The position numbers and the translations under genes were made by a program. The notes under the pieces are model-generated. The model worked only from the letters and a program-made list of their open reading frames with translations. It searched no databases and had not been told where the DNA came from. This document shows positions 498-61,853 of a DNA stretch of 64,000 nt, piece after piece. Source of the stretch: Escherichia phage Lw1; the sequence record KC801932. One strand, written 5' to 3'. Positions within the stretch are counted from its first letter, which is position 1, and each line of letters starts with the position of its first letter.

Positions 498-907
498 GAT
501 ATAGATCCCACAAGTTTAGTCAGAAGGTGTCCCATAGTCTTACGCGCATGATCGCGGATTTCGCTATAAGGAACATATTTGAAACCATCCATTTCTGTTA
601 TAGTTCGACCATTCTTAACGAAGGTTGACGCACAGAAACATTTTTCGGCTTCGGGGTAAGTATCGCCTTTGTAGACAAACAATGCAAGTTTTTTCTTGTT
701 TGTATAGTCCAAAACACCCAGGCTGATCAGTTGGTCGGGGAACACTTCAAAGCCAGTTTCTTCGAAGCATTCACGAATAGCAGCATCAATATGGGCTTCG
801 CCTTTTTCAACATGCCCCTTTGGGATATCCCAGTGGGGCGTTTCGGTAGCGTGACCCATTAGAATGCTGCCGTTATTCAGAAAGAGAATACCAGCAGACA
901 ATTCCAT
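494..907 (-). CDS. NUDIX hydrolase
   Basis: Nudix box GHVEKGEAHIDAAIRECFEETGF; start moved to internal ATG at 907 (MELSAGILF..., GGAG-like SD upstream) because the ORF-track start at 1057 would overlap the neighbouring gene. Confidence 0.7.
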   Translation of the reverse strand: MELSAGILFLNNGSILMGHATETPHWDIPKGHVEKGEAHIDAAIRECFEETGFEVFPDQLISLGVLDYTNKKKLALFVYKGDTYPEAEKCFCASTFVKNGRTITEMDGFKYVPYSEIRDHARKTMGHLLTKLVGSIS

Positions 908-908
908 G

Positions 909-1136
909 TTATACCCCTTTAGAGGTAAACTGTGCGTCGTATGCTGCAAGTGCATTATCTGCACGTTTTTTCGCTTCGGTATGCCCACGACTATCATTGA
1001 TAGCACGACGATACATTTCGACCCAGAATACGCGACGTGTATCTTCGTTCGCTTCAAACAGTTTAATATCGCGGTATACGTTTTGCTCTTTGATCATTTG
1101 AGCAAGTTGCAGGTCATGTTCGGTTTGGAAAGTCAT
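909..1136 (-). CDS. hypothetical protein (75 aa)
   Basis: ORF track; tightly packed in minus-strand operon. Confidence 0.45.
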   Translation of the reverse strand: MTFQTEHDLQLAQMIKEQNVYRDIKLFEANEDTRRVFWVEMYRRAINDSRGHTEAKKRADNALAAYDAQFTSKGV

Positions 1137-1387
1137 AATTCACCCATTTCTTTCAGTTCAGTTTTGAGTTTTTCGAGCGTAGATTGATATTGAATGCCTT
1201 TCATGTTTGACAGACGGCTATAATACAATGTACGCGTTTCGTTAATTTCTGCCAACACTTCTTGATCTAACTTAGAAGAATCAGCACCGAATGCCATATG
1301 AAACAGCGCTTCGGCTGTAGGGGCAAACCCATGTTGAAAGGCTATACCCAGTTTTGGTTCAAATTGCATCAGGGAAACATTAGCCAT
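1133..1387 (-). CDS. hypothetical protein (84 aa)
   Basis: ORF track 1133..1507 trimmed to internal ATG 1387 (MANVSLMQ...) to avoid 128-nt out-of-frame overlap with upstream ORF. Confidence 0.4.
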   Translation of the reverse strand: MANVSLMQFEPKLGIAFQHGFAPTAEALFHMAFGADSSKLDQEVLAEINETRTLYYSRLSNMKGIQYQSTLEKLKTELKEMGEL

Positions 1388-1673
1388 AATATTCTTCGTA
1401 GTCCTCGCAATCTGGGAGATACGTTTCGCAGAACATGCACAACGTGAAGAAAGTAGGCTGGCGAATCCCTGGATTATCAGGTAGATACATCCAGAACGTG
1501 TTAGCAAACACGATGAAGGTTTTCAGGTTTTCAACGGTTACTTCGCTGATACCATCATAACCGGATTGAGCAATAGCGCGTTCCAGGGGAACATGGTATT
1601 GCTGGCAGTAGTCGGCGTAATGTTCACTCAATACCATTGAGTTAGCCGCTTTTACGAGATCGATAATTTTCAT
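1380..1673 (-). CDS. hypothetical protein (97 aa)
   Basis: ORF track; start overlaps stop of upstream gene. Confidence 0.5.
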   Translation of the reverse strand: MKIIDLVKAANSMVLSEHYADYCQQYHVPLERAIAQSGYDGISEVTVENLKTFIVFANTFWMYLPDNPGIRQPTFFTLCMFCETYLPDCEDYEEYYG

Positions 1674-2008
1674 GCTTTTACATATTCCACTTTAACAGGT
1701 TTGGCGATAAGGTGATCTTTGGTGTAACCTTGTCCGTCGCAAACATCACAAACGATTTTGAAATCTTCCATTTGGTCGACCCATCCATAATCAGGCAATC
1801 CAGAAGGGTACGTGTTGAAGGTTTTAACACTGTATCCTTTCCCATCACACTTAGGGCATTTATACGGGTATTTCGATTTGATCGCACTATACAATTGACC
1901 CAATGTGGTCGAATGATCAAAGTGTATAACAAATGCTTCAATGTCAGCAATACGCAGTTCGTTTGGCTTGATCACAGTAAACACATTTGAAGGTATGTTT
2001 GAGCGCAT
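1670..2008 (-). CDS. hypothetical zinc-ribbon protein (CPKCDGKGY / CDVCDGQGY repeats)
   Basis: ORF track 1670..2140 begins with TTG; ATG at 2008 (MRSNIPS...) preferred; two CxxCxGxG motifs at C-terminus. Confidence 0.45.
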   Translation of the reverse strand: MRSNIPSNVFTVIKPNELRIADIEAFVIHFDHSTTLGQLYSAIKSKYPYKCPKCDGKGYSVKTFNTYPSGLPDYGWVDQMEDFKIVCDVCDGQGYTKDHLIAKPVKVEYVKA

Positions 2009-2018
2009 AATATATTTC

Positions 2019-2159
2019 TCACTTAAAGAATTTTTTGATGAAAGAGAGGAACAATCCACCACCGAACATGATCCAGTATCCCGCGCCGTCACCGTGAAAC
2101 AGGACGTAAACCGCGACACCATAACAAAAGATTTCTGCAATATTCAGTAAGTTTCTCAT
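2019..2159 (-). CDS. small hydrophobic protein candidate (46 aa, MRNLLNIAEIFCYGVAVYVLF...)
   Basis: ATG at 2159 preceded by strong SD (AAGGGAGGGGA); below ORF-track length cutoff; hydrophobic composition. Confidence 0.3.
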   Translation of the reverse strand: MRNLLNIAEIFCYGVAVYVLFHGDGAGYWIMFGGGLFLSFIKKFFK

Positions 2160-2250
2160 AATCCCCTCCCTTTTCTCTACACCAGGTATTTTACCAGAAA
2201 ATAGACTACTGTCAACAACAAAGTTTTATCAACGATACGATCACCAGTCA

Positions 2251-2391
2251 TCAGTAGTCACCCATAGGTTGAGAAGAAGCAACGCTCAATACGAGGAAAG
2301 AGCACTTGTTGATCCGGCAATATTCTTTTGCACAGTGAACACTACCTTTCATCACAAACCCGTTTGAGAACACCAACCAGTAAAGTTTCAT
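2251..2391 (-). CDS. small protein candidate (46 aa, MKLYWLVFSNGFVMKG...)
   Basis: ATG at 2391 preceded by AAGGAGG SD; C-terminal part of ORF-track 2251..2493. Confidence 0.35.
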   Translation of the reverse strand: MKLYWLVFSNGFVMKGSVHCAKEYCRINKCSFLVLSVASSQPMGDY

Positions 2392-2430
2392 GATTACCTC
2401 CTTTGTTTCGACACCCCTAATATAACAAAA

Positions 2431-2458
2431 GCCCCTGCACGAATGCAAGGGCTTTTTC
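2431..2458. terminator. hairpin with T-runs on both strands (bidirectional terminator candidate)
   Basis: gcccctgcacgaatgcaagggc stem-loop followed by ttttt on plus and ttttgtt on minus. Confidence 0.5.
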
Positions 2459-2626
2459 AAATATTTTTCAACATGCGTAGTTGAGGTGGACAATCTGGAG
2501 AAGCAATCAAACGATCCAGGCGAGACATAACGCGACGGTATCCGTCATACTCAAACTTGATTTTAGGCGGTACGTAGTTCACGTTAATTGCGTTGCGCGT
2601 GTTAATGTTCGCTTCGTACTCAGGGA

Positions 2627-3148
2627 TCACGAACTCTCGCCGCGATGTTCGATGTGCTCCGTGATATCCTCAACAGTCTTATCAAGGTCCAGAGATTCAG
2701 CATCTTCCTTGATAATAGTCAAATCTACAGGCAGTGTCAACAGTCTTTTCACTCCGCTGATATCTTCGATACGAGAATCATACGCAAGGGTAACATGCGG
2801 TTTGTAGTTGTCAAAATCGTAAGTCGCTCCGGCATCCATCGCATCATTGAAACGGCTATGCAGATAATCAGACTCCAGAACACCGACGATAGTGTTACCG
2901 TATTTTGTGTCCCACTTCTCTACGTCAACCAGTCGGGCAGGTTCAGAGATACCAGAGGCAGGGAACAAATCAACCGTCTTACGGCTATACACAATCGTTG
3001 TATGAAGTTTTTCAGCAGACACCGGATTCTCTACACCCAGAAGTTTTTGCACTTGTGCAAGCGCTTCACAGGAAGCCTGATCGAACTTCGCACACATATA
3101 GATCCCCGAATCAACTACGGGTTTCGCAACTTCAATAAAACTTTTCAT
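2627..3148 (-). CDS. acb1: 2H phosphoesterase-fold protein, Acb1-like (anti-CBASS cyclic-oligonucleotide phosphodiesterase candidate; T4 gene 57B position)
   Basis: Two H-x-T motifs (HTTIV at His49, HVTLAY at His118) typical of 2H phosphoesterases; lies immediately next to 57A and gene 1 as 57B does in T4; SD GGAG before ATG 3148. Confidence 0.6.
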   Translation of the reverse strand: MKSFIEVAKPVVDSGIYMCAKFDQASCEALAQVQKLLGVENPVSAEKLHTTIVYSRKTVDLFPASGISEPARLVDVEKWDTKYGNTIVGVLESDYLHSRFNDAMDAGATYDFDNYKPHVTLAYDSRIEDISGVKRLLTLPVDLTIIKEDAESLDLDKTVEDITEHIEHRGESS

Positions 3149-3158
3149 GTGTACTCCA

Positions 3159-3181
3159 AATGAAAAAGGGGCCGAAGCCCC
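3159..3181 (-). terminator. rho-independent terminator candidate downstream of 57A
   Basis: ggggccgaagcccc hairpin followed by T-run on minus strand. Confidence 0.5.
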
Positions 3182-3202
3182 TAGTGGTTAAACGCCTAAG
3201 CG

Positions 3203-3454
3203 TTAAGCATCTTTTGTTTCTGCGTCATCGGCTTCCGGCAGAAGTGCTTTGATAGCACCCAGCAGAGCATCAGGGGTTACACCCTGGGAACCGTCGATTT
3301 CCAGCAGACCGCAAATTTGACCGACGAGTTGGCGATGGCTTTGCAGTTCCTGATCTTTACCCTGAATGATTTCGTTCAGATCGAATACACGGGCTTTCAG
3401 AAGCAGGATGTCACTTTGCAGTTGCTGGGTTTGGTTTTTGGTTTGTTCAGTCAT
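3203..3454 (-). CDS. 57A: tail fiber assembly chaperone gp57A-like
   Basis: 83-aa acidic coiled-coil protein (MTEQTKNQTQQLQSDILLLKARV...) resembling T4 gp57A N-terminus; synteny 57B-57A-1-3. Confidence 0.6.
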   Translation of the reverse strand: MTEQTKNQTQQLQSDILLLKARVFDLNEIIQGKDQELQSHRQLVGQICGLLEIDGSQGVTPDALLGAIKALLPEADDAETKDA

Positions 3455-3465
3455 TGTTTACACTC

Positions 3466-4125
3466 TTAAAAGTTAAATACATTCAGCACGTCAGTTTTCA
3501 ATTCACCAAGCGTACCATTATTTAGGATGATAATATCGTTTGGTTGGGGTTTCAATCCTTTCTCAGTTGAATGGCTATCGTCTTCCCCAGTTTCGCGTTC
3601 GATGAATACAAATTTAGTCCCGAACTTGCTCAGGTATTTATATTCATGTTTTTGTCGAACGTCTGTAATGATAAAGTGATCTTTATCGGATTTCAAGATT
3701 TTCTTCAATACAATGTCAGTCCATACAGAATCGTTCTCATTGCAAACGATGTCAGTACCGAAAACCTGCATCAAACGGCGTATTGTCCAGGGATGTTTGT
3801 TTGTTTGGCAAATTTCATACGCGATGATATCAGCATTATTAAGCCAGTACCCGCGTTTAGTCAACGATTCAATGCCATTAGCAAACAGCATACGCGCACC
3901 TTCGTTAGACATCAACAGGGGTGCTTCCCGATCCCCTGAATAGAATGGGTTTGTTTTAGAGAGTTCTCGCAGATAGCGATCCCCTGATGCAGACATTCCA
4001 TTTCTCAGGATACTCTTTATTTCATCAGCAAGCGCGATTGCTTCAACGTTCTGATAGTTATCCAAAACGAATTGAGAAACGGTGTCTTTACCTGTTCTCT
4101 TTTTTCCGCAAATACCATAAATCAT
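3466..4125 (-). CDS. 1: deoxynucleoside monophosphate kinase (gp1)
   Basis: P-loop GKKRTGKDT, RRLMQVFGTD and DVRQKHE motifs shared with T4 gp1; synteny. Confidence 0.85.
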   Translation of the reverse strand: MIYGICGKKRTGKDTVSQFVLDNYQNVEAIALADEIKSILRNGMSASGDRYLRELSKTNPFYSGDREAPLLMSNEGARMLFANGIESLTKRGYWLNNADIIAYEICQTNKHPWTIRRLMQVFGTDIVCNENDSVWTDIVLKKILKSDKDHFIITDVRQKHEYKYLSKFGTKFVFIERETGEDDSHSTEKGLKPQPNDIIILNNGTLGELKTDVLNVFNF

Positions 4126-4661
4126 GATTCTTTTTTCCGTGGAGTCGGCACGAGTACCTTTCCGTCTATCTCAATTTCCATATGTGCGAAGTTGAACATA
4201 GCCATACAGGAAACGGCTTCATCCGAGTCATTAGTGTACATAAGCTCAAGCTCTCCCAGGTTGGAGGGCCAAGCACCATAAAAGCGAAATGTCGCCACAG
4301 TTTTTGATTGCGAGTTATCCAGGATGTGTAAAGCCATTGCCTGTTGTGGTTCACTCCATCGAATTGAATCGAAGGTGTTAAAATCACAGGTTCCAAGCAT
4401 CCACAGGTAAACACCCAGATACGAACGCAATTCTTCATCAACAGCAAAACGGATAGTCAACGGATCGAACTCCATTGCAGATCCAGGGATTTTCCCACGG
4501 ATCATAGGGTTCAATGGTACGTCCGTAATTGGAATGTTGACAGAAGGTAGTGTAACACCCTGAATTTGTAGTTTCAACCCTTTCATATAATCATTATCAG
4601 GAATATCTAACATAAAGTTAGTTGGTGAAATCTGGTTCAGGATCATAGCAGTAGTGTTCAT
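4122..4661 (-). CDS. 3: tail completion / sheath stabilizer protein gp3-like
   Basis: 179 aa, position between gene 1 and gene 2 as in T4; GGAGA SD before ATG 4661. Confidence 0.6.
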   Translation of the reverse strand: MNTTAMILNQISPTNFMLDIPDNDYMKGLKLQIQGVTLPSVNIPITDVPLNPMIRGKIPGSAMEFDPLTIRFAVDEELRSYLGVYLWMLGTCDFNTFDSIRWSEPQQAMALHILDNSQSKTVATFRFYGAWPSNLGELELMYTNDSDEAVSCMAMFNFAHMEIEIDGKVLVPTPRKKES

Positions 4662-6627: not shown

Positions 6628-7095
6628 TTATTGCCCTTTCCATCCAAATACACGTTTCAACGTGTCTTCTGTGATGATCTTAAACTCCCAGCCCTTTTGT
6701 TTTGCTGCTGCATTAGCGGCTTTCCATTTGTCAATGTTTACTGCATAAGTATACAGCGCATCAACAAATTTCTTTTTGTTGTGAACGTTGTTATTCGCTG
6801 GTTTCGGTGGTGGCAATGTTTCTTTCATCGGTTTGACTTCCCATAGGTAGGTCACTCCGTTATCCATTTCAACATAAAAATCCATGAAGTAACGCCGTCT
6901 TTTACCGTCTGCGTTGCTGAAATAGGGGATAACAACCTCTTCACTGTTCCAGCGCTTTACATGCGGGTTTCGATCAAGCCAGTTCATAATATATTTTTCC
7001 CAGCTTGAACGATACGTTATCTTTCGGGGATCGCCTTTATATTTTGTGATGTTCTGGGGCATAAAAGACCCCTTGTACGTCTGTCTTCCAGCCAT
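6628..7095 (-). CDS. 4: head completion protein gp4
   Basis: MAGR..YKG N-terminus and size match T4 gp4; synteny next to gp53. Confidence 0.65.
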   Translation of the reverse strand: MAGRQTYKGSFMPQNITKYKGDPRKITYRSSWEKYIMNWLDRNPHVKRWNSEEVVIPYFSNADGKRRRYFMDFYVEMDNGVTYLWEVKPMKETLPPPKPANNNVHNKKKFVDALYTYAVNIDKWKAANAAAKQKGWEFKIITEDTLKRVFGWKGQ

Positions 7096-7138: not shown

Positions 7139-7693
7139 ATGTTGTTCTCATTCTTCCCGCCTGTTGATTATAAAGGCACACCAACTACTGATATCTACCG
7201 CGATTATCGTTTTTACTTCAATCGCGTAATCAGGAATTATAAGCCCCGCACATATCAACTGACAGGATCATTAAGACCTGAACAATTAGCGGAAACGCTA
7301 TACGGAAACCAACAATACTACTGGGTTATCCTGATGCTCAATGATAATTACGATCCGTTCTATGGATGGATTACAGATCAGGAAACCGCTTATCAATGCG
7401 CTGTTCAGCGTTATTCGAAAGTAGGTGGTGAGCAAGTTCTTTACCATATGGACGGACAAAGCAACCGTTATTATAACCTGGTTGAAGATCCGACTAACCC
7501 CGGTCATTGGTATGACAAGGGTGATAAAGATATGCGTTATTTGCAGTATCAGGGAACTTTAGTCCCTGTAGATATTTATGAAGATGCCGTGTTGCAAAAT
7601 GAAGCACTTCGTACCATTAAAATTATCAATCCCTCTGATATTCAATCGTTTGTAAGCGATTATATCAAGGAAATGGAAAAGGCGAACACATGA
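7139..7693 (+). CDS. 53: baseplate wedge protein gp53
   Basis: Size and position directly upstream of gp5; overlaps gp5 start. Confidence 0.75.
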   Translation: MLFSFFPPVDYKGTPTTDIYRDYRFYFNRVIRNYKPRTYQLTGSLRPEQLAETLYGNQQYYWVILMLNDNYDPFYGWITDQETAYQCAVQRYSKVGGEQVLYHMDGQSNRYYNLVEDPTNPGHWYDKGDKDMRYLQYQGTLVPVDIYEDAVLQNEALRTIKIINPSDIQSFVSDYIKEMEKANT

Positions 7694-9456
7694 GATACGG
7701 TGGAAATGCAAACTCCCCGTTTTTTGATGGGGTTGTTGAAGAAGTTGATGACCCGTTATTTCTGGGACGGGTTCGGGTTCGCGTATTTGGTGAACACCCA
7801 GCACAGAAACAGAAATCTGAAACTATCGGTATTCCTGTTGAGGAATTGCCGTGGATGGTTCCTATCCAGAACATCACCAGCGCTGCTGTATCAGGAGTTG
7901 GGTTCTCTCCGACTGGTATCGTAAGAGGTAGCTTTGTATTCGGCGTATGGCGCGATAAATGGCATCAGGACGGCGTTATACTGGGAACCTATGCAGGGCA
8001 GTATGTTGAGAAGCCCGACACTCAGAAAGGCTTCTGTGACCCGTTTGGTGAGTATCCCCGCTACGTTGGTAACGATGTCAACGTATTGGCTCGTGGTGGT
8101 GTAGAAGGTAGGACATCAAGTAGTGTTGTTATCCGTGATGCAAACAGTTCATTGGCAGTAAACCCAGACGATCGCCCACTGGACGAAATACCGGAAGATA
8201 ACCGACCGGACACTGGCGGTTTCACCATTGAAACAATGATCAAGCAGGATGAAGGTATTCGGTTGACGTGGTATTATGATGTTAAAGGTTATACAATCGG
8301 GATTGGACACTTTTTCTTAACCGCTCCACAAGGTACAGATCCGGCAGTTGTTAACGCAGCGTTATCTAAACAAATTGGTAGAACTGTTACTGGTGTTCCT
8401 GGATCAATCACAGCAGAAGAAGCGGGCGTTTTATTTCAGCAAGATTTAGCTAAAGTTCATAGAGATATTCAGAATAATAGCAAAGTTCGTGAAGTATATC
8501 ATGATCTTAACCGTCCGCGCCAGATGGCTATTGAAAACATGTGCTTTCAGATGGGTGTTGGTGGTGTAGCAAAATTTACAAATGCTCTGGCTGCTATGAA
8601 GAGTCAGGACTGGCAAACCGCCTACAACGAACTGAGAAACTCAACATGGGCTAACCAGACACCAGGACGTTCTTCACGCGTATCTAAAATCGTGCTGACC
8701 GGAAACCTTGAATCATATGGTGTTATGGTTCCAGATCCAGAAGGAAGAAGCCTAAGCGCTGCTTATAACGCTGTAGTTCTGCAAGCCAGTAACCCAGAAG
8801 ACCCTTTTGTTCCTGGTGATACCCGTGTAATGTTCGAGGAACCAAAATCTGCATACGCTGCTGAATATCCTTACAATATGGTGTTTGAATCTCGTTCGGG
8901 ACATATTCAAGAATTCGACGATACACCAGGATTTGAACGTTATAACCGCGTTCACCCGGCAGGGACATATGAAGAAATTCGTCCTGATGGAAGCCGTGTC
9001 GTAAAAATTATGGGTGATGATTATCAGATTGTTATGCAGGGCAGGAAACTGAACGTTAAAGGCAATTTGCAAGTGGTAGTCGAAGGTGATGCGTTCATTT
9101 ACAATATGGGTAACGTTCAACAGACTGTTGATGGAAACGTAACTGAGTTCGTGCGCGGTAACGTAAACCAGACTGTCGAGGGTGAATATGTGGGACGCGT
9201 AAAAGGTAACGCAGAATTAACCGTCGAAAAAGATGCTACTATAAACGTGGATCAGAATTTAATGGCTAACGTTAAACAGAATGCAACTGTTAACGTAACC
9301 GAAGATGCAACTGTTACCGCAAAAAATGCGATGATGGATATTGAACAAGACTTCGATTTAAACGCGAACAATATCACAATGGTTGCCCGACAAAATACAT
9401 TAATAGATTCCGGTTCTCTGACTAAGATAACTGGTGGAACAGTCCAGGTAGGTTAA
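7690..9456 (+). CDS. 5: baseplate hub subunit and tail lysozyme gp5
   Basis: Central T4-lysozyme-like domain (YYDVKGYTIGIGHFFLT), C-terminal VxGxxx beta-helix repeats, 588 aa. Confidence 0.9.
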   Translation: MRYGGNANSPFFDGVVEEVDDPLFLGRVRVRVFGEHPAQKQKSETIGIPVEELPWMVPIQNITSAAVSGVGFSPTGIVRGSFVFGVWRDKWHQDGVILGTYAGQYVEKPDTQKGFCDPFGEYPRYVGNDVNVLARGGVEGRTSSSVVIRDANSSLAVNPDDRPLDEIPEDNRPDTGGFTIETMIKQDEGIRLTWYYDVKGYTIGIGHFFLTAPQGTDPAVVNAALSKQIGRTVTGVPGSITAEEAGVLFQQDLAKVHRDIQNNSKVREVYHDLNRPRQMAIENMCFQMGVGGVAKFTNALAAMKSQDWQTAYNELRNSTWANQTPGRSSRVSKIVLTGNLESYGVMVPDPEGRSLSAAYNAVVLQASNPEDPFVPGDTRVMFEEPKSAYAAEYPYNMVFESRSGHIQEFDDTPGFERYNRVHPAGTYEEIRPDGSRVVKIMGDDYQIVMQGRKLNVKGNLQVVVEGDAFIYNMGNVQQTVDGNVTEFVRGNVNQTVEGEYVGRVKGNAELTVEKDATINVDQNLMANVKQNATVNVTEDATVTAKNAMMDIEQDFDLNANNITMVARQNTLIDSGSLTKITGGTVQVG

Positions 9457-9458
9457 TC

Positions 9459-11531
9459 ATGATCATGGATTATGAAACGATAATTGATGGAATTATGCAA
9501 AATTTTCAGCATCCTTGTGATGCTGAAATACCTGCTGGATCGTACAGACGTATTATCTGGCAGGGACATACAGAAGACTACCCCGCTGTTGGGGTAGAAT
9601 GGGATACTGAAATCATTCCGATCGGGACGCATCTTTACACGCAATCCCCGTTCGGACAGAAAAGCGATCCGCTTCCGGTAGTCAACTCCCCAGGAACCGA
9701 TCCAGGAACTGGGGAAGCAACCGGGATTCTGGTAGAGAAGATTGGTTATTATTTCACCACACAACAGGAAATTGACGATTATATCACTTCTATTGGTGCA
9801 ACGAAACTAACTGGTAACGATTGGTACGGCGCGGATCTGACAAAAGCAAACCTGTTTAAAAATCCGGGGGAACTCGCAATGTATAAAGTCGAGAACTCTG
9901 GTGGTTATCTGATGACTTCTGGACCTCGCTGTGATCCACGTATCAGACAGGCTTATAACGTCGATACAGGGGCGTTTACGAGCATTGATTACGATTGGAA
10001 TGGTAATCGTATTGCTTACATGAAACATGACGACACAGGGGCGCACAATTGCAAATACGTAGGGATGATGGTCAACACCAACGCAGATACGAGCATTCCT
10101 CCGGTTCCTCCGGCTATGCCGTCTGTGTATGGTGCGTTACCGAGCGAAATTTCAATGATGCGATCTGGTTTGGGTTGTGTTCCGGCGACCGTTGGGTTTG
10201 CCTACACAAACATCAGTGATGCGATGCTCGAAGCATGGAACGAAACCAGGAAATCATTCAAACTTGTATTTGACATGCTTTCTGGGATCACTAAATCGGG
10301 TTCTGGTGGTATTTCTACAATGTATGATGGTTTGTGTATCGCGATGGAAGAAATTGCAGCAGGTGCTCTTGCTTTATCCCAGCAAGCATGGCAAGCCGCA
10401 ATGAAAGTGTTTCGTGATGTTATTTCATCAGCATTGAACATTGTAGGTGGTGCGTGGGACATGATAAAAAGTTTTCTGCCTACGGTGACCATTATGGGTG
10501 TGTCGATAAACATATACGATCTGATTTTTGGTGATAACTCTGTTCAGACACTAAAAGACGCATTTCAGGCAATCATTGATTCTGGTGTACAAACATATGA
10601 AGCAATCATAAACGAAATATATGCCACTATAGGCAGTGTTTACAATTATGCGGTAGAATATGTCAAGGCTGGCGCTAGAGACCTCGTAGACGCGTGTAGT
10701 GCGTTATTTGATTGGTGTATTACTATGTTCCAGAATGGTTGTGTGGCACTGGTTGATTTATACGGAAGGATCATGCAGATCTGGTCAATGCCTCCGATGG
10801 TTCCAAACCCGTTATGGGCTGCTGTTTTGGCTATCAGAAACATCCTTATGCAGATCAAACCTCTTGATATAATTTTAAGCGGTAACTTTCCTGGTTTTAC
10901 TGCGATGGACTTGTACCAATGGGCGCAAGAAAAAGTCAAGGAATTTATTGATCAATCATACGAACAGATACGCGGATATTATGAACAGGCTAAAAATCTT
11001 TACAACATGCTAACATCGCAGACTCAGGAAAGGGATGCAATAAAACGTAAATTTGACCAGTATCTTAACTGGATGTGGGGTGCTGTTACTGATGCTGCTA
11101 CCGCTGCATATCAGGCCGCGTTGGACGCTGCAAACGAAGCAATCGAACAAACAAAGGCAATGATAGATGGTGTTAAAGCACAGATAGCCGCTCTACAGGA
11201 CGCGTTGAAAGACACGTACAGTCTCGCAATGGAAGAGTTAAAGAAACTGCCTATCATGCAGCAGATTAACGAATTCTTAGGCTACTGTGGTATTGCTTTC
11301 GATGACTTACTGAAAACGTATGATAACGCGGTTACGGGCGCAAAATCCCTGTATAAAAACTTTGTGGACAGTTCCCGATCGTTCAAGGATACCTGCAAGG
11401 TGATATACAACCAGATATGTACGCTGGCACTAAGTAAGGTGACTCAATACGTGAATAAACTGTTGTCTCTAATCGGACTGATGATCAATTTCGCATCAAT
11501 CAATATTTGCGTTCCGATGATTCAACTATAA
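9459..11531 (+). CDS. large hypothetical protein (690 aa) between gp5 and gp6; helical, hydrophobic segments, C-terminal coiled-coil
   Basis: Long uninterrupted ORF tightly coupled to gp5 stop; no recognisable catalytic motif by eye. Confidence 0.8.
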   Translation: MIMDYETIIDGIMQNFQHPCDAEIPAGSYRRIIWQGHTEDYPAVGVEWDTEIIPIGTHLYTQSPFGQKSDPLPVVNSPGTDPGTGEATGILVEKIGYYFTTQQEIDDYITSIGATKLTGNDWYGADLTKANLFKNPGELAMYKVENSGGYLMTSGPRCDPRIRQAYNVDTGAFTSIDYDWNGNRIAYMKHDDTGAHNCKYVGMMVNTNADTSIPPVPPAMPSVYGALPSEISMMRSGLGCVPATVGFAYTNISDAMLEAWNETRKSFKLVFDMLSGITKSGSGGISTMYDGLCIAMEEIAAGALALSQQAWQAAMKVFRDVISSALNIVGGAWDMIKSFLPTVTIMGVSINIYDLIFGDNSVQTLKDAFQAIIDSGVQTYEAIINEIYATIGSVYNYAVEYVKAGARDLVDACSALFDWCITMFQNGCVALVDLYGRIMQIWSMPPMVPNPLWAAVLAIRNILMQIKPLDIILSGNFPGFTAMDLYQWAQEKVKEFIDQSYEQIRGYYEQAKNLYNMLTSQTQERDAIKRKFDQYLNWMWGAVTDAATAAYQAALDAANEAIEQTKAMIDGVKAQIAALQDALKDTYSLAMEELKKLPIMQQINEFLGYCGIAFDDLLKTYDNAVTGAKSLYKNFVDSSRSFKDTCKVIYNQICTLALSKVTQYVNKLLSLIGLMINFASINICVPMIQL

Positions 11532-11534
11532 ATA
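11527..11534 (+). promoter_or_regulatory. T4-type late promoter box TATAAATA
   Basis: Exact TATAAATA ~20 nt upstream of gp6 ATG. Confidence 0.45.
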
Positions 11535-11554
11535 CCCGATAAAGAGGGGTAATA

Positions 11555-13468
11555 ATGGCTACCGTAAAGAAACAAATTAATCAGATCCCCGATATTTTCG
11601 TCGGGGCTACTTTTGATGAAATCAAATCAGATTTAATTAACTGGCTTCGTGGTCAGGAAGAATTTAAGGATTACGATTTCGCTGGCTCTCGTATGAACGT
11701 ACTGGTTGACCTGCTTTCGTATACTACACTGTACATTCAGCAAATGAGTAACACCGCACTATTCGAATCATTCATTCGAACTGCGGCGCTTCGTAGTTCT
11801 GTTGTACAAAAGGCTCAGGATCTGGGATATATGCCGGACTCTCGCACCGCTGCAAATACCTCGATTCTAATTACTGCAAAGAACCCGCTGAACCCTACGT
11901 CAATTCGTATTCCACGAGGGACGAAGTTTATCGGTACTGTAAAAGAAACAAACAGCTTCCCGTTTGTCGTATCCGATGACGTGGTGATCGTGCGTGACAA
12001 AGACAACAACTATGTTTCTATGTTAAACATTGTCCAGGGGCGTTTAGTTCGTACTGAGGTAATCTACGATGGTTCTACTATCCTGATTCGCGATCCGAAT
12101 ATAGACCGTAACCAGGTGCGTGTGTCTATCAACGGGGCGCAATGGGATGACTGGACAAACGAAAGTATCGTAAACGCAACGGGCGCAAGTACCGTGTTTT
12201 ATATGCGGGAAACCGTTGACGGACACACTGAGGTTTACTTTGGTGAAGGTGAAACCAGTCAACAGGTGGCAGGTGGTGCTCTTACCGCTGACTACATCGG
12301 GGGCTTGAAACCTGCTAACGGTTCTGTCGTTGTTATTGAATATATTTCAACCAATGGCGAAGAAGCAAACGGTGCGGAAAACTTTGTTTACGTGGATACG
12401 TTGACAAATATCAGCATTACAAGTATTGTTGAGAACCCGACCAACTCTCAGGACTACGTAGGTGCTGATGGTGGCGGTGAACCGGAAGACATTGAGCGTA
12501 TTCGTGAACTTGCTCCGATCATGCGTGAAACACAACGTCGTTGTGTTACTGCGTCGGATTATGAATCGTTCCTGTCTCACAGATTCGGTTCGGTGATCCA
12601 AGCTGTACAGTGCTTTACTGACAGTGAAAAACCTGGATATGCGTTTATCGCGGTTAAACCGAAATCAGGGTTGCGCTTAACCTCTGTGCAGAAAGAGGAT
12701 ATGCAAAACTATCTGGCGAAGTATAACCTTGCGACGATCACGCCGTCTATTCTCGACCCTAACTATCTGTATATTGTACAAAACATCAAAGTTACGTATG
12801 ATATCAGTAAATTGATTGAGTCAGAAGAATGGCTTCGTGGTCAGGTAATCAACGAAATCGACAAATACTATACTGATAACGTTGAAATTTTCAACAAATC
12901 ATTCAGTAAGTCCAAGATGTTGACCTATGTTGATAACGCGGACGTGTCGATCATCGGTTCTTCTGCAACGATTAACATGTTGCGTGAACTCGATAACTAT
13001 TACAGTGCTCCGATGTCTGGTATTCATTTCTTAAACCAGGTCGCATCACGATCCATTATATCGAACGGATTCAAGTATACAAATGCTGATGACGATTCAT
13101 ATGATGTGCGTTATGCGTCTACTGATATGGACACTACGACCGGACTTGCTAAAATCGTAATAGGGCCATTTAAAGATGGTGATATCTCAATCACTCCGTA
13201 TGCTGGGGATGATTTCGATAAATACCCTGGGGTGACGGACAGAACGAAATACTATGAGGTCGGTTATGTTGAACATTACAACGACTTCATTAGCTTCGAT
13301 CTGGGTGTTTTAAACGTCCCATCAGAACGCTTTAGCGCTGCTTATATCGAACTGACGGCTAAACCATTAGAGGAAACTATCTTTACCCGTGATGGTTCTC
13401 TGATTGTGTTTGAAAACGATCTGCGTCCTCAATATACCACGTTGACGATGAACCCGATCAGCCAATAA
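11555..13468 (+). CDS. 6: baseplate wedge protein gp6
   Basis: N-terminal ~170 aa closely parallels T4 gp6 (IPDIFVGATFDEIK...YDFAGSRMNVL...LRSSVVQKAQD). Confidence 0.9.
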   Translation: MATVKKQINQIPDIFVGATFDEIKSDLINWLRGQEEFKDYDFAGSRMNVLVDLLSYTTLYIQQMSNTALFESFIRTAALRSSVVQKAQDLGYMPDSRTAANTSILITAKNPLNPTSIRIPRGTKFIGTVKETNSFPFVVSDDVVIVRDKDNNYVSMLNIVQGRLVRTEVIYDGSTILIRDPNIDRNQVRVSINGAQWDDWTNESIVNATGASTVFYMRETVDGHTEVYFGEGETSQQVAGGALTADYIGGLKPANGSVVVIEYISTNGEEANGAENFVYVDTLTNISITSIVENPTNSQDYVGADGGGEPEDIERIRELAPIMRETQRRCVTASDYESFLSHRFGSVIQAVQCFTDSEKPGYAFIAVKPKSGLRLTSVQKEDMQNYLAKYNLATITPSILDPNYLYIVQNIKVTYDISKLIESEEWLRGQVINEIDKYYTDNVEIFNKSFSKSKMLTYVDNADVSIIGSSATINMLRELDNYYSAPMSGIHFLNQVASRSIISNGFKYTNADDDSYDVRYASTDMDTTTGLAKIVIGPFKDGDISITPYAGDDFDKYPGVTDRTKYYEVGYVEHYNDFISFDLGVLNVPSERFSAAYIELTAKPLEETIFTRDGSLIVFENDLRPQYTTLTMNPISQ

Positions 13469-26389: not shown

Positions 26390-26446
26390 ATAGTTTATAT
26401 GGGTATAGGCGAAAGTCTGTACCCTCTTCGAAGAGGATTTTATGAT

Positions 26447-27172
26447 ATGGTTGCAAAAATCTCTATAGAACAAAGAGAACATCAATTAAAAGAACGTTGT
26501 GCGGAATTAGAACTATCTTTTGATGGATGGGTAGACCAATCAGCGATCACAAAATATTCAAAGTTTTATGTTGTTTGCAGTAAAGGACATAGAACAGAAA
26601 AACAGATCAAACCATTTGTCAACAAAAGTCGTCCAAACGGATGTTATTTGTGTTCCCCTAAGATGAAAATATCAAAGGAAAACAGAATCGAGGAAATCAA
26701 AACTCTTGCAGATTCAATTGGATATACATTCGTAGATTTCGTTGGGGTGTATAAAGATGCACACACAAAAATATCAATGGTTTGCGATAAAGGCCATAAT
26801 TGGGATGTAAGTATAGTTGCTTTTCTCAATCAAGGTCATCGCTGTAAAAAATGCGCAACGTCTGGGTTCAATCCGAACAAACCAGCATACGTATACGTAC
26901 AATCACTATCTGGAAAATTTCTGAAATTTGGGATAACCAACAGAACACCAAAGAAAAGAATGTGTGCGCAATCAAATAAATCCGTTTATAAACACGAACT
27001 GGTTTATCAAAAATTATTCGATAAAGGTATTGATGCAATGAGTATTGAACAGAAGATCAAACAATCTCTTGTTTGTGGCGTAGTCGATAAATCAGATATG
27101 ATGGATGGATATACAGAAACAACAGATATATCCAATTACGATAAACTGTTGAATATTATAGAAGGAGTATAA
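26447..27172 (+). CDS. tandem zinc-ribbon protein with C-terminal GIY-YIG-like (T5orf172-type) motif; putative freestanding homing-endonuclease-like insertion between gp14 and gp15
   Basis: Two C-x-KGH...C-xx-C modules; motif YVYVQSLSGKFLKFGITNR; absent from this position in T4; start set at ATG 26447 with SD, palindrome cctcttcgaagagg just upstream. Confidence 0.5.
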   Translation: MVAKISIEQREHQLKERCAELELSFDGWVDQSAITKYSKFYVVCSKGHRTEKQIKPFVNKSRPNGCYLCSPKMKISKENRIEEIKTLADSIGYTFVDFVGVYKDAHTKISMVCDKGHNWDVSIVAFLNQGHRCKKCATSGFNPNKPAYVYVQSLSGKFLKFGITNRTPKKRMCAQSNKSVYKHELVYQKLFDKGIDAMSIEQKIKQSLVCGVVDKSDMMDGYTETTDISNYDKLLNIIEGV

Positions 27173-36663: not shown

Positions 36664-38244
36664 ATGTCTAAGAAAAACGAATTGATGGAAAAATGGAACG
36701 ATCTTCTGGAATCTCAGGAAGGTTTACCGGATATCGCTACCAAATCCAAAAAACAACTGGTCGCTGCCATTCTGGAAGCACAGGAAAAAGACGCTGAAAC
36801 CGATCCGGTTTATCGCGACGAAAAAATTGTGGAATCCTTCGGTGGTTTCCTGGCAGAAGCAGAAATTGCTGGCGATCATAACTATGACCCGACCAACATC
36901 GCTTCTGGTAAATCCAGCGGTGCTATCACCAACATCGGTCCTGCTGTAATCGGTATGGTTCGCCGTGCGATCCCTAACCTGATTGCGTTCGACATTTGCG
37001 GTGTTCAGCCTATGACTGGTCCTACTGGTCAGGTGTTCGCTCTCCGTGCTGTCTACGGTAAAGATCCTCTGGCTGGCGGTACTCCGGCAGATGTTCGTGA
37101 AGCATTCCATCCGATGTTTGCCCCGGATACCATGTATTCTGGTCAGGGTGCTGCACCAAGCAACGGTTTCGCGAAAATCACTACTGGTACTGCAATTGCA
37201 ACTGGCGCTATCGTTTACCACTTCTTCGAAGAAACTGGTATTGCGTACTTCCAGAACGTAACTTCTGGTAACGTAACCGTAACTGGTGCTACTCCGGCAG
37301 AACTGGACCTGGCTGTTACCGCAGAGAACGAAAAAGGTACTCTGGCTGAAATTTCTCAGGCTATGGCTACCAGTGTAGCAGAACTCCAGGAAAACTTCAA
37401 CGGTTCCAGTTCTAACCCGTGGAACGAAATGGCTTTCCGTATCGACAAACAGGTTATCGAAGCCCGTAGCCGTCAACTGAAAGCACAGTATTCCGTTGAA
37501 CTGGCACAGGATCTCCGCGCTGTTCACGGTATGGACGCTGACGCAGAACTGTCTGCAATCCTGGCAACTGAAATCATGCTGGAAATCAACCGCGAAATCG
37601 TTGATCTGATCAACTTTACCGCGCAGATTGGTAAAACTGGTTTCACCAAGACTGTAGGCTCTAAAGCTGGTGCGTTTGACTTCCAAGATCCGGTAGATAT
37701 TCGCGGCGCTCGTTGGGCTGGTGAAAGCTACAAAGCTCTGTTGATTCAGATCGACAAAGAAGCGAACGAAATCGCACGTCAAACAGGCCGTGGTGCTGGT
37801 AACTTCATCATCGCTTCCCGTAACGTGGTTTCCGCTCTGGCTCGTATCGACAGCGGTATTACTCCGGCAGGTCAGGGCTTGCAGAAGTCTCTGAACGTTG
37901 ACACTACCAAAGCGGTATTCGCTGGTGTTCTGGGTGGCACTTACAAAGTGTACATCGACCAGTACGCTCGTAGCGATTACTTCACCGTTGGCTTCAAGGG
38001 TGATAACGAAATGGATGCTGGTATCTACTACGCTCCATACGTTGCGCTTACCCCGCTGCGTGGTTCTGATCCGAAGAACTTCCAGCCAGTAATGGGCTTC
38101 AAAACTCGTTACGGTATCGGTATCAACCCGTTTGCGAACTCTCGCACTCAGGCTCCGGCAGATCGTATCACCTCCGGTATGATCACTAAAGACATGGTCG
38201 GCAAAAACGCATACTTCCGTAAAGTATACGTTAAAGGTCTGTAA
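36664..38244 (+). CDS. 23: major capsid protein gp23
   Basis: Long stretches matching T4 gp23 (GPAVIGMVRRAIPNLIAFDICGVQPM, NPWNEMAFRIDKQVIEA, GIYYAPYVALTPLRGSDPKNFQPVMGFKTRYGIGINPFA). Confidence 0.97.
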   Translation: MSKKNELMEKWNDLLESQEGLPDIATKSKKQLVAAILEAQEKDAETDPVYRDEKIVESFGGFLAEAEIAGDHNYDPTNIASGKSSGAITNIGPAVIGMVRRAIPNLIAFDICGVQPMTGPTGQVFALRAVYGKDPLAGGTPADVREAFHPMFAPDTMYSGQGAAPSNGFAKITTGTAIATGAIVYHFFEETGIAYFQNVTSGNVTVTGATPAELDLAVTAENEKGTLAEISQAMATSVAELQENFNGSSSNPWNEMAFRIDKQVIEARSRQLKAQYSVELAQDLRAVHGMDADAELSAILATEIMLEINREIVDLINFTAQIGKTGFTKTVGSKAGAFDFQDPVDIRGARWAGESYKALLIQIDKEANEIARQTGRGAGNFIIASRNVVSALARIDSGITPAGQGLQKSLNVDTTKAVFAGVLGGTYKVYIDQYARSDYFTVGFKGDNEMDAGIYYAPYVALTPLRGSDPKNFQPVMGFKTRYGIGINPFANSRTQAPADRITSGMITKDMVGKNAYFRKVYVKGL

Positions 38245-38259
38245 GACTTTACACAAGAA

Positions 38260-38286
38260 AGGCAACCTACGGGTTGCCTTTTTTTA
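38260..38286 (+). terminator. rho-independent terminator after gp23
   Basis: aggcaacc tacg ggttgcct hairpin + ttttttt. Confidence 0.8.
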
Positions 38287-46104: not shown

Positions 46105-46938
46105 TCAACCCCATGTATCGGTTTTAGGTGCGTATGCTGCAACTTTAGCCACTAATTCCTTATCAAGCTGATCAATGGATTTCTGCGGTTTGCCTTTTGC
46201 CTTAACTTTGATGTAATTAGACTTGACAACGAACATACCGCCTTTGTCGGATTTCTTAACTTCGCTATCAATACCAACTTTGTTAAAGCTGATCCAGATG
46301 TCACCATCCATGTACTGTTTCAGAGAATCGCCCATGTTAAGGATCTTAGCCATAGTAAGCGCGGCCCCTTCGTGGGTATCCATGAGGATCTCTTTTGGAA
46401 CAACACGGTCGCGTTTCAGGTTCTGCTGCATGGCAATATGAACATCGTTCATTACCCAAACGATATGGATGTTTTCTTTCTTGTACCCCAGCGCTTCAAC
46501 ATCACGGGCGATACTTGCCAGTTTGCTCATGCTTTTCAGGGTTACGTCAAAAATCAGGTTTGGTTTGCGATCTTCCGGTGCTGCTGCGATACCAGCATAA
46601 ACACGCGCCTGGTTTTTGTTTGATACGTTGAAAACGTCTGCGATCACATGGTGAAGTGTTGCAACGTTATCAGGGTTTTTCAGGTTCATTGTTTTAACGT
46701 CATGACCTGTTTTTGCTTTAATTTCTGCTGCTAGTTTGGTGCTACCCATTACCAGCTTTTTCAATGCGTCAACGTCCAGTGTGATCCCTTCGATGCCTAA
46801 CAGCTTTTCGAGAGTGAAGCCTTTACCGGAACCCGCACCGCCAGCCAGGATCACGACCTGACCGAATTTCTGATAAGCCTTACCGCCGAAGGTAATCAGC
46901 GCTTCATCAAGGCTCACAAAGTCTTTGAATGATTTCAT
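46105..46938 (-). CDS. protein with CTS-like N-terminus and glycine-rich nucleotide-binding loop (candidate packaged P-loop enzyme)
   Basis: N-terminus MKSFKDFVSLDEA resembles capsid targeting sequence; VVILAGGAGSGKGFT loop; GGAG SD. Confidence 0.6.
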   Translation of the reverse strand: MKSFKDFVSLDEALITFGGKAYQKFGQVVILAGGAGSGKGFTLEKLLGIEGITLDVDALKKLVMGSTKLAAEIKAKTGHDVKTMNLKNPDNVATLHHVIADVFNVSNKNQARVYAGIAAAPEDRKPNLIFDVTLKSMSKLASIARDVEALGYKKENIHIVWVMNDVHIAMQQNLKRDRVVPKEILMDTHEGAALTMAKILNMGDSLKQYMDGDIWISFNKVGIDSEVKKSDKGGMFVVKSNYIKVKAKGKPQKSIDQLDKELVAKVAAYAPKTDTWG

Positions 46939-60657: not shown

Positions 60658-60941
60658 TTAATACGGCGCAATGTAAAGCCCTGAACTTTCTGATTCATGA
60701 ACTGGTTGAATACGATATTCCTTTTGAGTTCGTCGATCCGATAAACTCAGAATACAACTATACGTTTTTCTGGTCGTCTGGTGATGACAGTATCGACGCG
60801 GTGGATAAAATCGTTAGAAGTGCTCTACGTAATAATAGCATGGTGATGATCGGAAGCGTAAACGCTAACACCTGGAACGGTGCTGATGCGTATTTCATCG
60901 GCTATCGGACTATGTTTGATACGGTAGTAGAAATATGTTGA
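60651..60941 (+). CDS. hypothetical protein (96 aa)
   Basis: ORF track. Confidence 0.45.
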   Translation: MLINTAQCKALNFLIHELVEYDIPFEFVDPINSEYNYTFFWSSGDDSIDAVDKIVRSALRNNSMVMIGSVNANTWNGADAYFIGYRTMFDTVVEIC

Positions 60942-60966
60942 CAGCGGATTCATGAACGCGTACTAT
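60938..60966 (+). promoter_or_regulatory. sigma70-type promoter (TTGACA - 17 nt - TACTAT) followed by hairpin gcccctgtag...ctataggggc
   Basis: Upstream of ORF 61001. Confidence 0.4.
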
Positions 60967-61000
60967 GCCCCTGTAGACAACAAACTATAGGGGCTAAATC

Positions 61001-61237
61001 ATGAAAATCAAAAATACTGCTACTGAAAATCTTTGCAACGAAATCGCGGTGACTTACTGGAAAGAAGGTCACGCAAAAGCAATGAAGGATTTTCAACACT
61101 GGAAAGAAGGTCACGCAAAAGCAATGAAGGATTTTCAACCGTGGTGTGATACCCAGAAGTTAGCCAAATGGGAATACATCGTAATCGTGGAACGGATCAA
61201 AGAACTGATCCTTGAGAAGAAAGGCACTATAAAATGA
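61001..61237 (+). CDS. hypothetical protein (78 aa) containing in-frame 14-aa duplication
   Basis: ORF track; WKEGHAKAMKDFQ repeated. Confidence 0.45.
   Translation: MKIKNTATENLCNEIAVTYWKEGHAKAMKDFQHWKEGHAKAMKDFQPWCDTQKLAKWEYIVIVERIKELILEKKGTIK
61057..61140 (+). repeat. perfect-to-near-perfect tandem duplication, 2 x 42 bp
   Basis: ctggaaagaaggtcacgcaaaagcaatgaaggattttcaac repeated head-to-tail, one mismatch at unit end. Confidence 0.9.
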
Positions 61238-61295
61238 TTCAACTGAAATTAGACACCTATACGCTGAACAATCTGTTCCCAGAGGCAAAAGGCTG

Positions 61296-61787
61296 ATGAA
61301 CTTTGACCGCATCTACAACATGGATGTGGTCAACGGTAAAGGAATCCGTGTAGTGTTGTTTGTCACTGGCTGCAATCATAAATGCGAAGGTTGCTACAAC
61401 AAATCAACATGGAATCCCCGCAACGGTACACCATACACCGAAGAGACTGAAAACGAGTTGATTAAACTCCTTTCAAATCCTTATGTGGACGGATTGACGC
61501 TTACAGGTGGCGATCCGTTTTACCGCACCAATCATCCAACACTGTTAAACCTGCTCCAGCGCGTTCGTGCTGAGTTGCCGGATAAGAACGTATGGGTTTG
61601 GACAGGCTACACACTGGACGCCTTACAAAGCGATACAGAACGTTCTAAGCTACTTCCGTTTATTGATGTTCTTATCGACGGGAAGTATGAAAAAGATTTG
61701 CCGACTAAGAAACCGTTTCGCGGTTCTGATAATCAGCGATTGATTGAGTTTCAGAAAGATTCAATAGAAATTAAAAATATCGCTTGA
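61296..61787 (+). CDS. nrdG: anaerobic ribonucleotide reductase activating protein NrdG (radical SAM)
   Basis: CNHKCEGC cluster (CxxxCxxC), GGDPF motif. Confidence 0.9.
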   Translation: MNFDRIYNMDVVNGKGIRVVLFVTGCNHKCEGCYNKSTWNPRNGTPYTEETENELIKLLSNPYVDGLTLTGGDPFYRTNHPTLLNLLQRVRAELPDKNVWVWTGYTLDALQSDTERSKLLPFIDVLIDGKYEKDLPTKKPFRGSDNQRLIEFQKDSIEIKNIA

Positions 61788-61853
61788 CCTGGTTGGTGAT
61801 TCTGATAAGATGTAGCACGTAACGAAACATAAACTTTAATTGAGAGAAACATT

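Follow-up and report, generated by a model that had tools for sequence, protein, structure and literature searches.

What caps the cell-puncturing spike of a T4-like phage that has no gene 5.4? In phage T4 the junction between the genes for gp5 and gp6 is occupied by 5.1, segC, 5.3 and 5.4, the last of which codes for a PAAR protein. In Escherichia phage Lw1 (sequence record KC801932), of which a stretch of 64,000 nucleotides (the window) was analyzed, the same junction is filled by one open reading frame (ORF) of 690 amino acids (aa). We propose that its product is an orf205w-type spike-tip protein whose single chain caps the gp5 β-helix in place of gp5.4 (and possibly of gp5.1), and we give this reading a probability of about 0.7. 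A preliminary description of the DNA, made from the sequence alone, had put forward a spike-associated candidate in the slot of the missing PAAR gene. That suggestion is supported by the mutual exclusion of the ORF family and gp5.4, by the pairing of the family with one type of gp5 tip, by a natural swap in phages SG1 and PD112, by adjacency to gp5 in rearranged and distant loci, and by a published map of phage RB43. The elements on which the argument turns are the following.

7690..9456, + strand: gp5 cell-puncturing spike with OB fold, lysozyme and C-terminal β-helix (Pfam Gp5_OB E 1.6e-64, Phage_lysozyme, Gp5_C), the proposed binding partner.
9247..9453, + strand: C-terminal 69 aa of gp5, the tip-type-specific end of the β-helix, with the final residues ...DSGSLTKITGGTVQVG (tblastn, 214 phage records).
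9459..11531, + strand: 690-aa ORF with ATG start, putative non-PAAR spike-tip protein, ortholog of RB43 orf205w (PHROG 5296; phrog_5296, E = 0).

The layout of the junction is as the preliminary description had it. The ORF, which was said to be tightly coupled to the gp5 stop, starts at 9459 after a 2-nucleotide (nt) spacer from the gp5 stop codon TAA (9454-9456), and the statement that T4 has only small ORFs here, gp5.4 among them, is correct. No PAAR-like small ORF had been noticed, and tblastn with T4 gp5.4 gave no match in the window; homologs of T4 gp5.4, 5.1 and 5.3 were found neither there nor in the whole RB43 genome.

The DNA of the ORF is 82-85% identical to that of Citrobacter phages KKP_3664 and Miller and Escherichia phages RB43 and RB16, so that on sequence identity the phage of this window is assigned to the RB43-like T4-type phages (Pseudotevenvirus). 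The protein is 91% identical to RB43 ORF205w, labeled "hypothetical protein" in its record, and matched PHROG 5296, which carries no annotation, over its full length (ORF aa 3-689 against profile positions 1-684 of 685, E = 0). A 5.8-billion-protein collection contained 54 homolog clusters with 35-91% identity, nearly all of 664-717 aa and all named "hypothetical". The ratio of nonsynonymous to synonymous substitution rates (dN/dS) between the window ORF and its RB43 ortholog was 0.046. From this value and the 54 clusters of conserved length we conclude that the ORF is a real gene under strong purifying selection.

By tblastn, the orf205w family was found in 215 of 50,697 phage records, one of which, from Klebsiella, is a spurious 36-aa match. 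The carriers are RB43-like phages, the Cronobacter/Enterobacter GAP161 group, Klebsiella Slopekvirus, Dhakavirus (Bp7), SP18, Proteus Bragavirus, Nanhuvirus LPCS28, and Salmonella phages SG1 and KM16. An exhaustive profile search of 1.84 billion representatives added just two further distant full-length relatives, and by these searches the family is confined to T4-like phages. In phT4A (KX130727.1) the homolog is a "truncated" protein of 485 aa; we considered it as a natural deletion of the N-terminal domain and rejected it, since the shortening is a 100-N assembly gap.

The family has been discussed before. Mattenberger et al., of the Leiman and Belin groups, reported in 2025 (preprint PMC12407873) that RB43, RB16 and Lw1 lack gene 5.4 and that orf205w (~690 aa) fills the locus of T4 5.1-5.4. 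They described residues 1-220 as mixed α/β and the remainder as helical, and in their cryo-electron microscopy of RB43 at 17.7 Å a larger tip density was present on a T4-like baseplate. Two papers (PMC12407873, PMC13611949) propose that RB43 orf205w codes for a non-PAAR tip of the spike: a large cap would sit there instead of the small PAAR tip of T4. In an AlphaFold3 model of the Helios gp5 trimer with gp203, a homolog of the orf205w protein (Viruses 2026, PMC13611949), a three-helix core sits on the gp5 prism; this "triple coiled-coil core" consists of Phe287-Ile327, Glu398-Trp440 and Lys631-Ile670, with a loop at its distal end (PMC13611949).

T4 gp5.4 homologs were detected by tblastn in 1,422 phage records, out to Campylobacter and Rhizobium phages. 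For the exclusivity test, gp5.4 and the 690-aa ORF were joined into a single query, and the counts per genus were compared with the sums of the separate searches. The counts were exactly additive (Escherichia 578+25=603, Klebsiella 161+114=275, Shigella 80+3=83, Enterobacter 36+20=56), places exceeded records by 6, as with gp5.4 alone, and the coverage of the joined query exceeded 88% in no record. It follows from these three results that no record carries both gp5.4 and a family ORF: across the 50,697 phage records, the orf205w family is mutually exclusive with gp5.4.

The family also goes with one kind of gp5. Over its whole length the window gp5 shares 51% identity with T4 gp5, a figure that falls to 19-25% in the last ~70 alignment columns. 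This gp5 ends in ...GSLTKITGGTVQVG, a divergent C-terminal tip of the ...TGGTV.VG* type in a genome without gene 5.4. A gp5 partnered with the family always ends in ...(S/G)G.L.K(I/V).GG.VQVG or ...FTGGTV.VG, whereas T4 gp5 ends in ...TIDGSRIDIG. With the C-terminal 69 aa of gp5 as a tblastn query, 214 records were matched, and no T4-type phage was among the matches listed. Their counts per genus are those of the orf205w family, except for Klebsiella (113 vs 114), where the difference of one is the spurious 36-aa family match. The tie of the family to gp5 is strict, and so is its tie to a single gp5 tip type.

The linkage extends to the gene order. The order gp53-gp5-ORF-gp6 is kept in Bp7, PM2, SG1, KP27 and PD112, and gp5-ORF-gp6 also in RB43. 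In the window, Bp7, PM2, SG1, KP27, LPCS28 and two metagenomic loci (L013 and L014), the distance between the gp5 stop and the start of the ORF is -1 to +6 nt. In Cronobacter phage LPCS28 (Nanhuvirus; locus 811-4658) the family member adjoins a gp5 homolog and gp6 is not downstream; small reverse-strand ORFs follow the gp5-ORF pair, and the baseplate gene order is rearranged. The two metagenomic loci hold the distant relatives, each directly 3′ of a gp5-type gene. At L014 (contig Ga0620835_007198, 219-1388) this gene codes for a 389-aa gp5 with an OB domain and a β-helix and no lysozyme domain; it ends in ...FTGGTVVVG and is followed by the distant family member P0056 (743 aa). The gp5 ending ...TGGTV.VG* was seen at both loci.

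A natural exchange has moved the gp5 tip and the ORF together. Salmonella phage SG1 and E. coli phage PD112, both classed as Tequatrovirus, are T4-like except for one swapped block of ~2.3 kb.

SG1 locus 2334-4628, same coordinates in PD112: swapped block with the last ~88 gp5 codons and a 678-aa ORF, Dhakavirus (Bp7)-like.

DNA identity to T4 is 97.5% in SG1 and 96.0% in PD112 up to gp5 codon ~502, and similarity resumes 10 nt before the gp6 start (95.4% in SG1, 95.7% in PD112), with identical breakpoints in both phages. At the protein level SG1 is 100% identical to T4 in gp53, 98% in gp6 and 98-100% per 50-column block over alignment columns 1-500 of gp5. Of the last 95 residues of SG1 gp5, 85 of 95 are identical to Bp7 and 31 of 80 to T4, and the 678-aa ORF is 73% identical to its Bp7 counterpart. 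Because T4 similarity stops at gp5 codon ~502 and resumes before gp6 at the same breakpoints in SG1 and PD112, a single recombination event must have exchanged [gp5 tip + 5.1 + segC + 5.3 + 5.4] for [alternative gp5 tip + large ORF]. This is the pattern expected if the ORF product must match the gp5 tip that it binds and substitutes for the 5.1-5.4 module. SG1 and PD112 offer a near-isogenic natural comparison with T4 for two spike-tip types. The comparison of this junction across T4-like genomes, which the preliminary description had advised, revealed a conserved gp5-ORF pair, exclusion of gp5.4 and exchange of the tip cassette.

The architecture of the protein was analyzed with an AlphaFold2 (AF2) model built from an alignment of 28 sequences. 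The model had a mean predicted local distance difference test score (pLDDT) of 86.1 and a predicted template modeling score (pTM) of 0.77, where the preprint (PMC12407873) had reported "low" confidence. Its template modeling score against the BFVD model of a 46%-identical family member was 0.86. The following parts were distinguished.

9501..10073, + strand: N-terminal α/β domain (aa ~15-205), with 26 invariant residues including C20, R30-R31, W122-Y-G-A-D126, E138, E145-N146 and C198.
10341..10445, + strand: core helix 1 (aa 295-329), predicted by AF2, one of the three helices of the core.
10671..10784, + strand: core helix 2 (aa 405-442), predicted by AF2, counterpart of Helios gp203 Glu398-Trp440.
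10785..10901, + strand: aa 443-481, where invariant residues are densest within the C-terminal region, PP.VPNPLW ... LSGNFPGFT, with 9 of 39 columns invariant and a mean entropy of 0.96 bits.
10902..11204, + strand: long helical hairpin predicted by AF2 (aa 482-536 and 545-582) with the apex loop 537-544 NWMWGAVT; it contains the Ala/Gln-rich "coiled coil".
11370..11471, + strand: core helix 3 (aa 638-671; AF2 helices 638-654 and 656-671), counterpart of Helios gp203 Lys631-Ile670.
11472..11528, + strand: hydrophobic C-terminal tail (aa 672-690; Kyte-Doolittle, AF2) with a predicted β-strand at 681-689 and the family pattern F-P-x-I-S-x-C-x-P.

The model also contains a Pro-rich linker (SIPPVPP) and a disordered loop at aa 282-293. 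Its three core helices match the published core of Helios gp203, so that the AlphaFold prediction proposed in the preliminary description gave a confident model with the helices already reported. The Ala/Gln-rich segment quoted there is indeed in the translation, at aa ~542-585, where it forms one arm of the predicted hairpin. The hydrophobic helical segments noticed at the same time held up in part: the helices are present, but they are just moderately hydrophobic, with 19-residue Kyte-Doolittle peaks of 1.53 (aa 339-357) and 1.88 (aa 667-690). A transmembrane protein was considered and rejected, the peaks being modest (1.5-1.9) and the segments being buried strands or helices in the AF2 model. 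For the membrane interaction suggested in the preliminary description, hydropathy thus gave no sign of transmembrane helices.

The most conserved parts are core helix 3 (the most conserved helix, with a mean major-residue frequency of 0.77), aa 443-481, core helices 1 and 2, and the N-terminal domain. The hairpin is the most variable part (column entropy 2.1-2.3 bits) and the source of weak tape-measure and apolipoprotein-like matches. This pattern agrees with a conserved core that binds gp5 and a projection that is exposed. A purely mechanical role does not account for how strongly the N-terminal domain is conserved. Among viral proteins (Foldseek, BFVD) the significant fold matches were family members only, and no PDB neighbor was found for the N-terminal domain. 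The ORF had no significant Pfam match, and neither nuclease or mobility domains nor a recognizable effector domain were found with Pfam and PHROGs.

The expression of the gene can be approached from its neighbors.

7139..7693, + strand: gp53 baseplate wedge gene (Pfam Phage_gp53 E 4.6e-63), first gene of the gp53-gp5-ORF block.
11527..11534, + strand: T4-type late promoter motif TATAAATA, exact match, upstream of gp6 and overlapping the stop codon of the 690-aa ORF.
11555..13468, + strand: gp6 baseplate wedge gene (five Gp6 Pfam domains, E 1e-19 to 1e-42), with gp7 next.

As stated in the preliminary description, the ORF precedes the gp6 late promoter, which is an exact motif at the coordinates given above. 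The motif occurs 10 times in the window against 2.78 expected, and none of 100 shuffles reached 10; most of its copies stand upstream of structural genes, on the + strand. Between positions 6900 and 11351 of that strand, no further match with one mismatch or less was found, and the 690-aa ORF is therefore probably co-transcribed with gp53 and gp5.

Taken together, our model is as follows. The ORF product would be made late and be translationally coupled to gp5; its message is most likely the gp53-gp5 transcript. One copy would cap the blunt C-terminal end of the trimeric gp5 β-helix, where T4 has the 97-aa PAAR protein gp5.4 (and perhaps gp5.1). The core helices of one chain (aa 295-329, 405-442 and 638-671) would continue the threefold axis of the spike, and the variable hairpin (aa 482-582) would project from this core. 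Hairpin and N-terminal domain may form the enlarged tip seen at low resolution. When the sheath contracts, the cap would reach the outer membrane before any other part of the virion, and it would pass into the periplasm together with the spike. Its attachment to gp5, the copy number of one, the direction in which the hairpin points, and any enzymatic action or contact with membrane or lipopolysaccharide (LPS) are inferred here or taken from the literature.

Compared with known systems, the ORF shows no material difference from RB43 orf205w and Helios gp203: length, gp5-ORF-gp6 position, partner gp5 tip and predicted three-helix core are the same. It resembles T4 gp5.4 and other PAAR tips (PF05488; PDB 4KU0, 4JIV) in being encoded beside the spike gene and upstream of gp6, and its single-copy seat on the end of the β-helix is proposed. 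Unlike gp5.4, it is seven times larger and largely α-helical rather than a conical β-structure, with no sequence or fold similarity; no PAAR_motif match was found at E ≤ 0.1 (Pfam), and a metal-site motif was not identified. The tripod of phage P1 UpfB on the PAAR protein UpfC (PDB 9VZK), as described in PMC13611949, is likewise an α-helical extension past the spike tip with a distal loop. Compared by description, P1 places three copies of a separate helical protein on a PAAR protein, whereas the window ORF would supply three core helices from one chain, without PAAR. With the spikes of P2 gpV and phi92 gp138, which have a fused apex domain, and with the "evolved" PAAR/VgrG proteins of type VI secretion systems (T6SS), which carry extension domains, it shares the principle of a modular, exchangeable tip able to carry extra domains (compare the SG1/PD112 exchange). 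Those tips, however, are β-structured, metal-binding, or PAAR-based with added effectors, whereas the window ORF lacks PAAR, an HxH apex and a recognizable effector domain.

By analogy with the T6SS, the cap could also be a delivered multifunctional module, a phage counterpart of a "specialized effector". The N-terminal domain, the most invariant part, with strictly conserved acidic, aromatic and Cys residues (WYGAD126, E138, E145-N146, C20/C198), would then be an enzyme or ligand-binding domain directed against a conserved component of the envelope, for example the LPS core, peptidoglycan or a periplasmic protein such as PpiD. The hairpin, which is variable and has aromatic residues in its apex loop, would engage the membrane or insert into it, and the two tip cassettes would set envelope penetration or host range. 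We regard this extension as doubtful; if it is true, gp5.4-type and orf205w-type cassettes would be exchanged by recombination within the gp5 β-helix.

Several points weigh against the spike-tip reading itself. A complex of the orf205w protein with a gp5 β-helix fragment was not obtained on co-production, and the wording of the preprint for the tip assignment is only "possibly encoded by orf205w" (PMC12407873); the function of Helios gp203 has "not been established experimentally" (PMC13611949). The RB43 map, at 17.7 Å and C6-symmetrized, is unable to identify a protein. Mass spectrometry data for any family member were not found in the literature, the one dataset found being from a gp5.4-type Jiaodavirus, and no solved structure of a family member or of an RB43-type gp5 tip was found in the PDB. 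The exclusivity rests on tblastn with T4 gp5.4 at E ≤ 1e-3, and a very divergent PAAR-like protein (DUF4150/DUF4280 type) encoded elsewhere was not covered at the level of hidden Markov models. A pseudo-threefold adaptor is unsupported because no internal triplication of the three core-helix segments was found (best hhalign P = 0.017, no better than control segments). Finally, co-inheritance with the gp5 tip would also be expected of a tip-specific assembly chaperone.

Such a chaperone would be a non-structural factor that aids the folding or trimerization of the divergent gp5 C-terminal end and is absent from the finished virion, for which gp57A and the intramolecular chaperones of fibers provide the comparison. 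Tight linkage, co-transfer with the gp5 tip and one-to-one co-occurrence fit it equally, as do the missing complex after co-expression with the gp5 fragment (PMC12407873) and the finding of no virion proteomics for the family in the literature. However, in RB43 the tip density is enlarged, and a PAAR gene that would explain it is missing; T4 gp5 does without a factor of this kind. The mutual exclusion with gp5.4, which is a structural tip protein, speaks for a functional replacement, and at 76 kDa, with a confidently modeled globular fold and a strongly conserved N-terminal domain, the ORF product is large for a helper in the folding of ~90 residues. We consider an assembly factor improbable.

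About as improbable, in our judgment, is an ejected, membrane-acting virion protein (a pilot or channel-forming protein) carried elsewhere, e.g., in the hub or the tube lumen, with the enlarged tip of RB43 being of other origin. The features that point to it are the long amphipathic helices, which resemble helical parts of tape measures, IpaB, YaxB and apolipoproteins, the hydrophobic C-terminal tail, and the aromatic residues of the apex loop (NWMWG).

Some GenBank and pharokka annotations make the ORF a tail length tape measure protein, which in these phages would be the first or a second one. Like T4 gp29 and other tape measures (PF25671, PF10145, PF20155), the ORF is long and helix-rich, and its length is similar to that of gp29 (590 aa). 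Over aa ~250-675 it has weak PHROG matches to more than 10 tape-measure families (best phrog_1272, E 1.4e-12), and several Klebsiella phage records (PP889503.1, PP889462.1, PQ657798.1, PQ657829.1) label the gene "tail length tape measure protein". RB43, however, has a genuine gp29 ortholog in the canonical slot between gp28 and gp48. Its hub cluster reads gp27, gp28, ORF103w (457 aa) and ORF104w (105 aa), gp48, gp54, gp51, gp26, gp25. ORF103w and ORF104w cover positions 1-459 and 476-579 of one 579-position PHROG (7361, "baseplate hub"), which is related to PHROG 1283, the T4 gp29 family (E 3e-10; BLASTP to T4 gp29 2e-5). Since together they cover this gp29-related PHROG, RB43-like phages already have a gp29-type tape measure of normal length.

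The 690-aa ORF lies outside that cluster and shows no similarity by BLASTP to T4 gp29 (E 0.65) or RB43 ORF103w (E 5.9). It has no match to the signature domains T4_Tape_measure (PF25671), PhageMin_Tail (PF10145) or TMP_3 (PF20155). In the exhaustive search, the weak matches (E 1e-9 to 6e-4) included true tape measures, which matched only through apolipoprotein-like helices outside the PhageMin_Tail/TMP_3 domains; with Foldseek against viral models tape measures appeared at E > 1, and the protein that AF2 predicts (pTM 0.77) has several domains and is compact rather than extended. With a gp29 ortholog elsewhere, no signature domain and helical-only similarity, the tape-measure label is a compositional and helical artefact. 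We conclude that: i) the tape-measure identity is effectively refuted, ii) the labels "tail length tape measure" on this gene in several GenBank records are wrong, and iii) the ORF product is neither a PAAR nor a tape measure protein.

With respect to the hub genes, the gp29-type gene of RB43 (60894-62625; locus 10894-12267 and 12308-12625) is annotated as two ORFs, which could reflect a frameshift, a sequencing error or a genuine split. In the window, ORFs at 49-55 kb were considered as the gp27-gp29 hub cluster and rejected, for they are srd, rnlB, a DprA-like protein, NAMPT and dam; the 64-kb window does not extend to the hub cluster.

A selfish or accessory insertion without a tail role, for which one could cite the homing endonuclease gene segC at the same T4 junction and the clear horizontal replacement of the locus, is scarcely credible in view of the absence of nuclease and mobility domains, a dN/dS of 0.046, the conservation of length and position in ~214 genomes of many genera, and a swap that always takes the gp5 tip along, which a selfish element would not need.

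Elsewhere in the window, gp14 and gp15 flank a 257-aa ORF at 26399-27172 (+ strand) that carries a CapR homology domain (PF21817, E 9e-18); of all 2-kb bins of the window, the one in which this ORF stands has the lowest G+C content (0.395). In RB43 the homing endonuclease gene mobE occupies this gp14-gp15 slot, which therefore looks like a variable insertion site. A 277-aa ORF at 46105-46938 (- strand) has a P-loop kinase domain of the Zeta-toxin type (PF06414, E 6e-8; PHROG 5268, function unassigned), and its counterpart is RB43ORF241c. A 513-aa ORF at 36724-38265 (- strand) runs antisense through nearly all of a 526-aa ORF at 36664-38244 (+ strand), which is the major capsid gene gp23 by RB43 gene order; the antisense ORF is probably a chance ORF.

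The novelty implied by the preliminary description did not survive: the gene is routinely found at this position in ~214 related phage genomes, and its RB43 ortholog had already been proposed as a spike tip. Gene family, position, absence of gp5.4 and the spike-tip hypothesis are all published for this 91%-identical ortholog. The present analysis adds the database-wide counts of exclusivity and pairing, the SG1/PD112 swap and the gp5 C-terminal signature, as well as the explicit rejection of the tape-measure annotation and an N-terminal domain without a known fold.

The biology of this tip is unusual, yet would not surprise a specialist. At least 214 sequenced T4-like phages have, in place of the PAAR protein, a wholly different candidate for the spike tip, a mostly helical protein of 76 kDa without structural relatives. 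Therapeutic candidates against Klebsiella, Enterobacter, Cronobacter, Citrobacter and Proteus are among the carriers. The function of the orf205w family would tell whether PAAR-type sharpening of the spike is dispensable, and whether tip cassettes influence host range.

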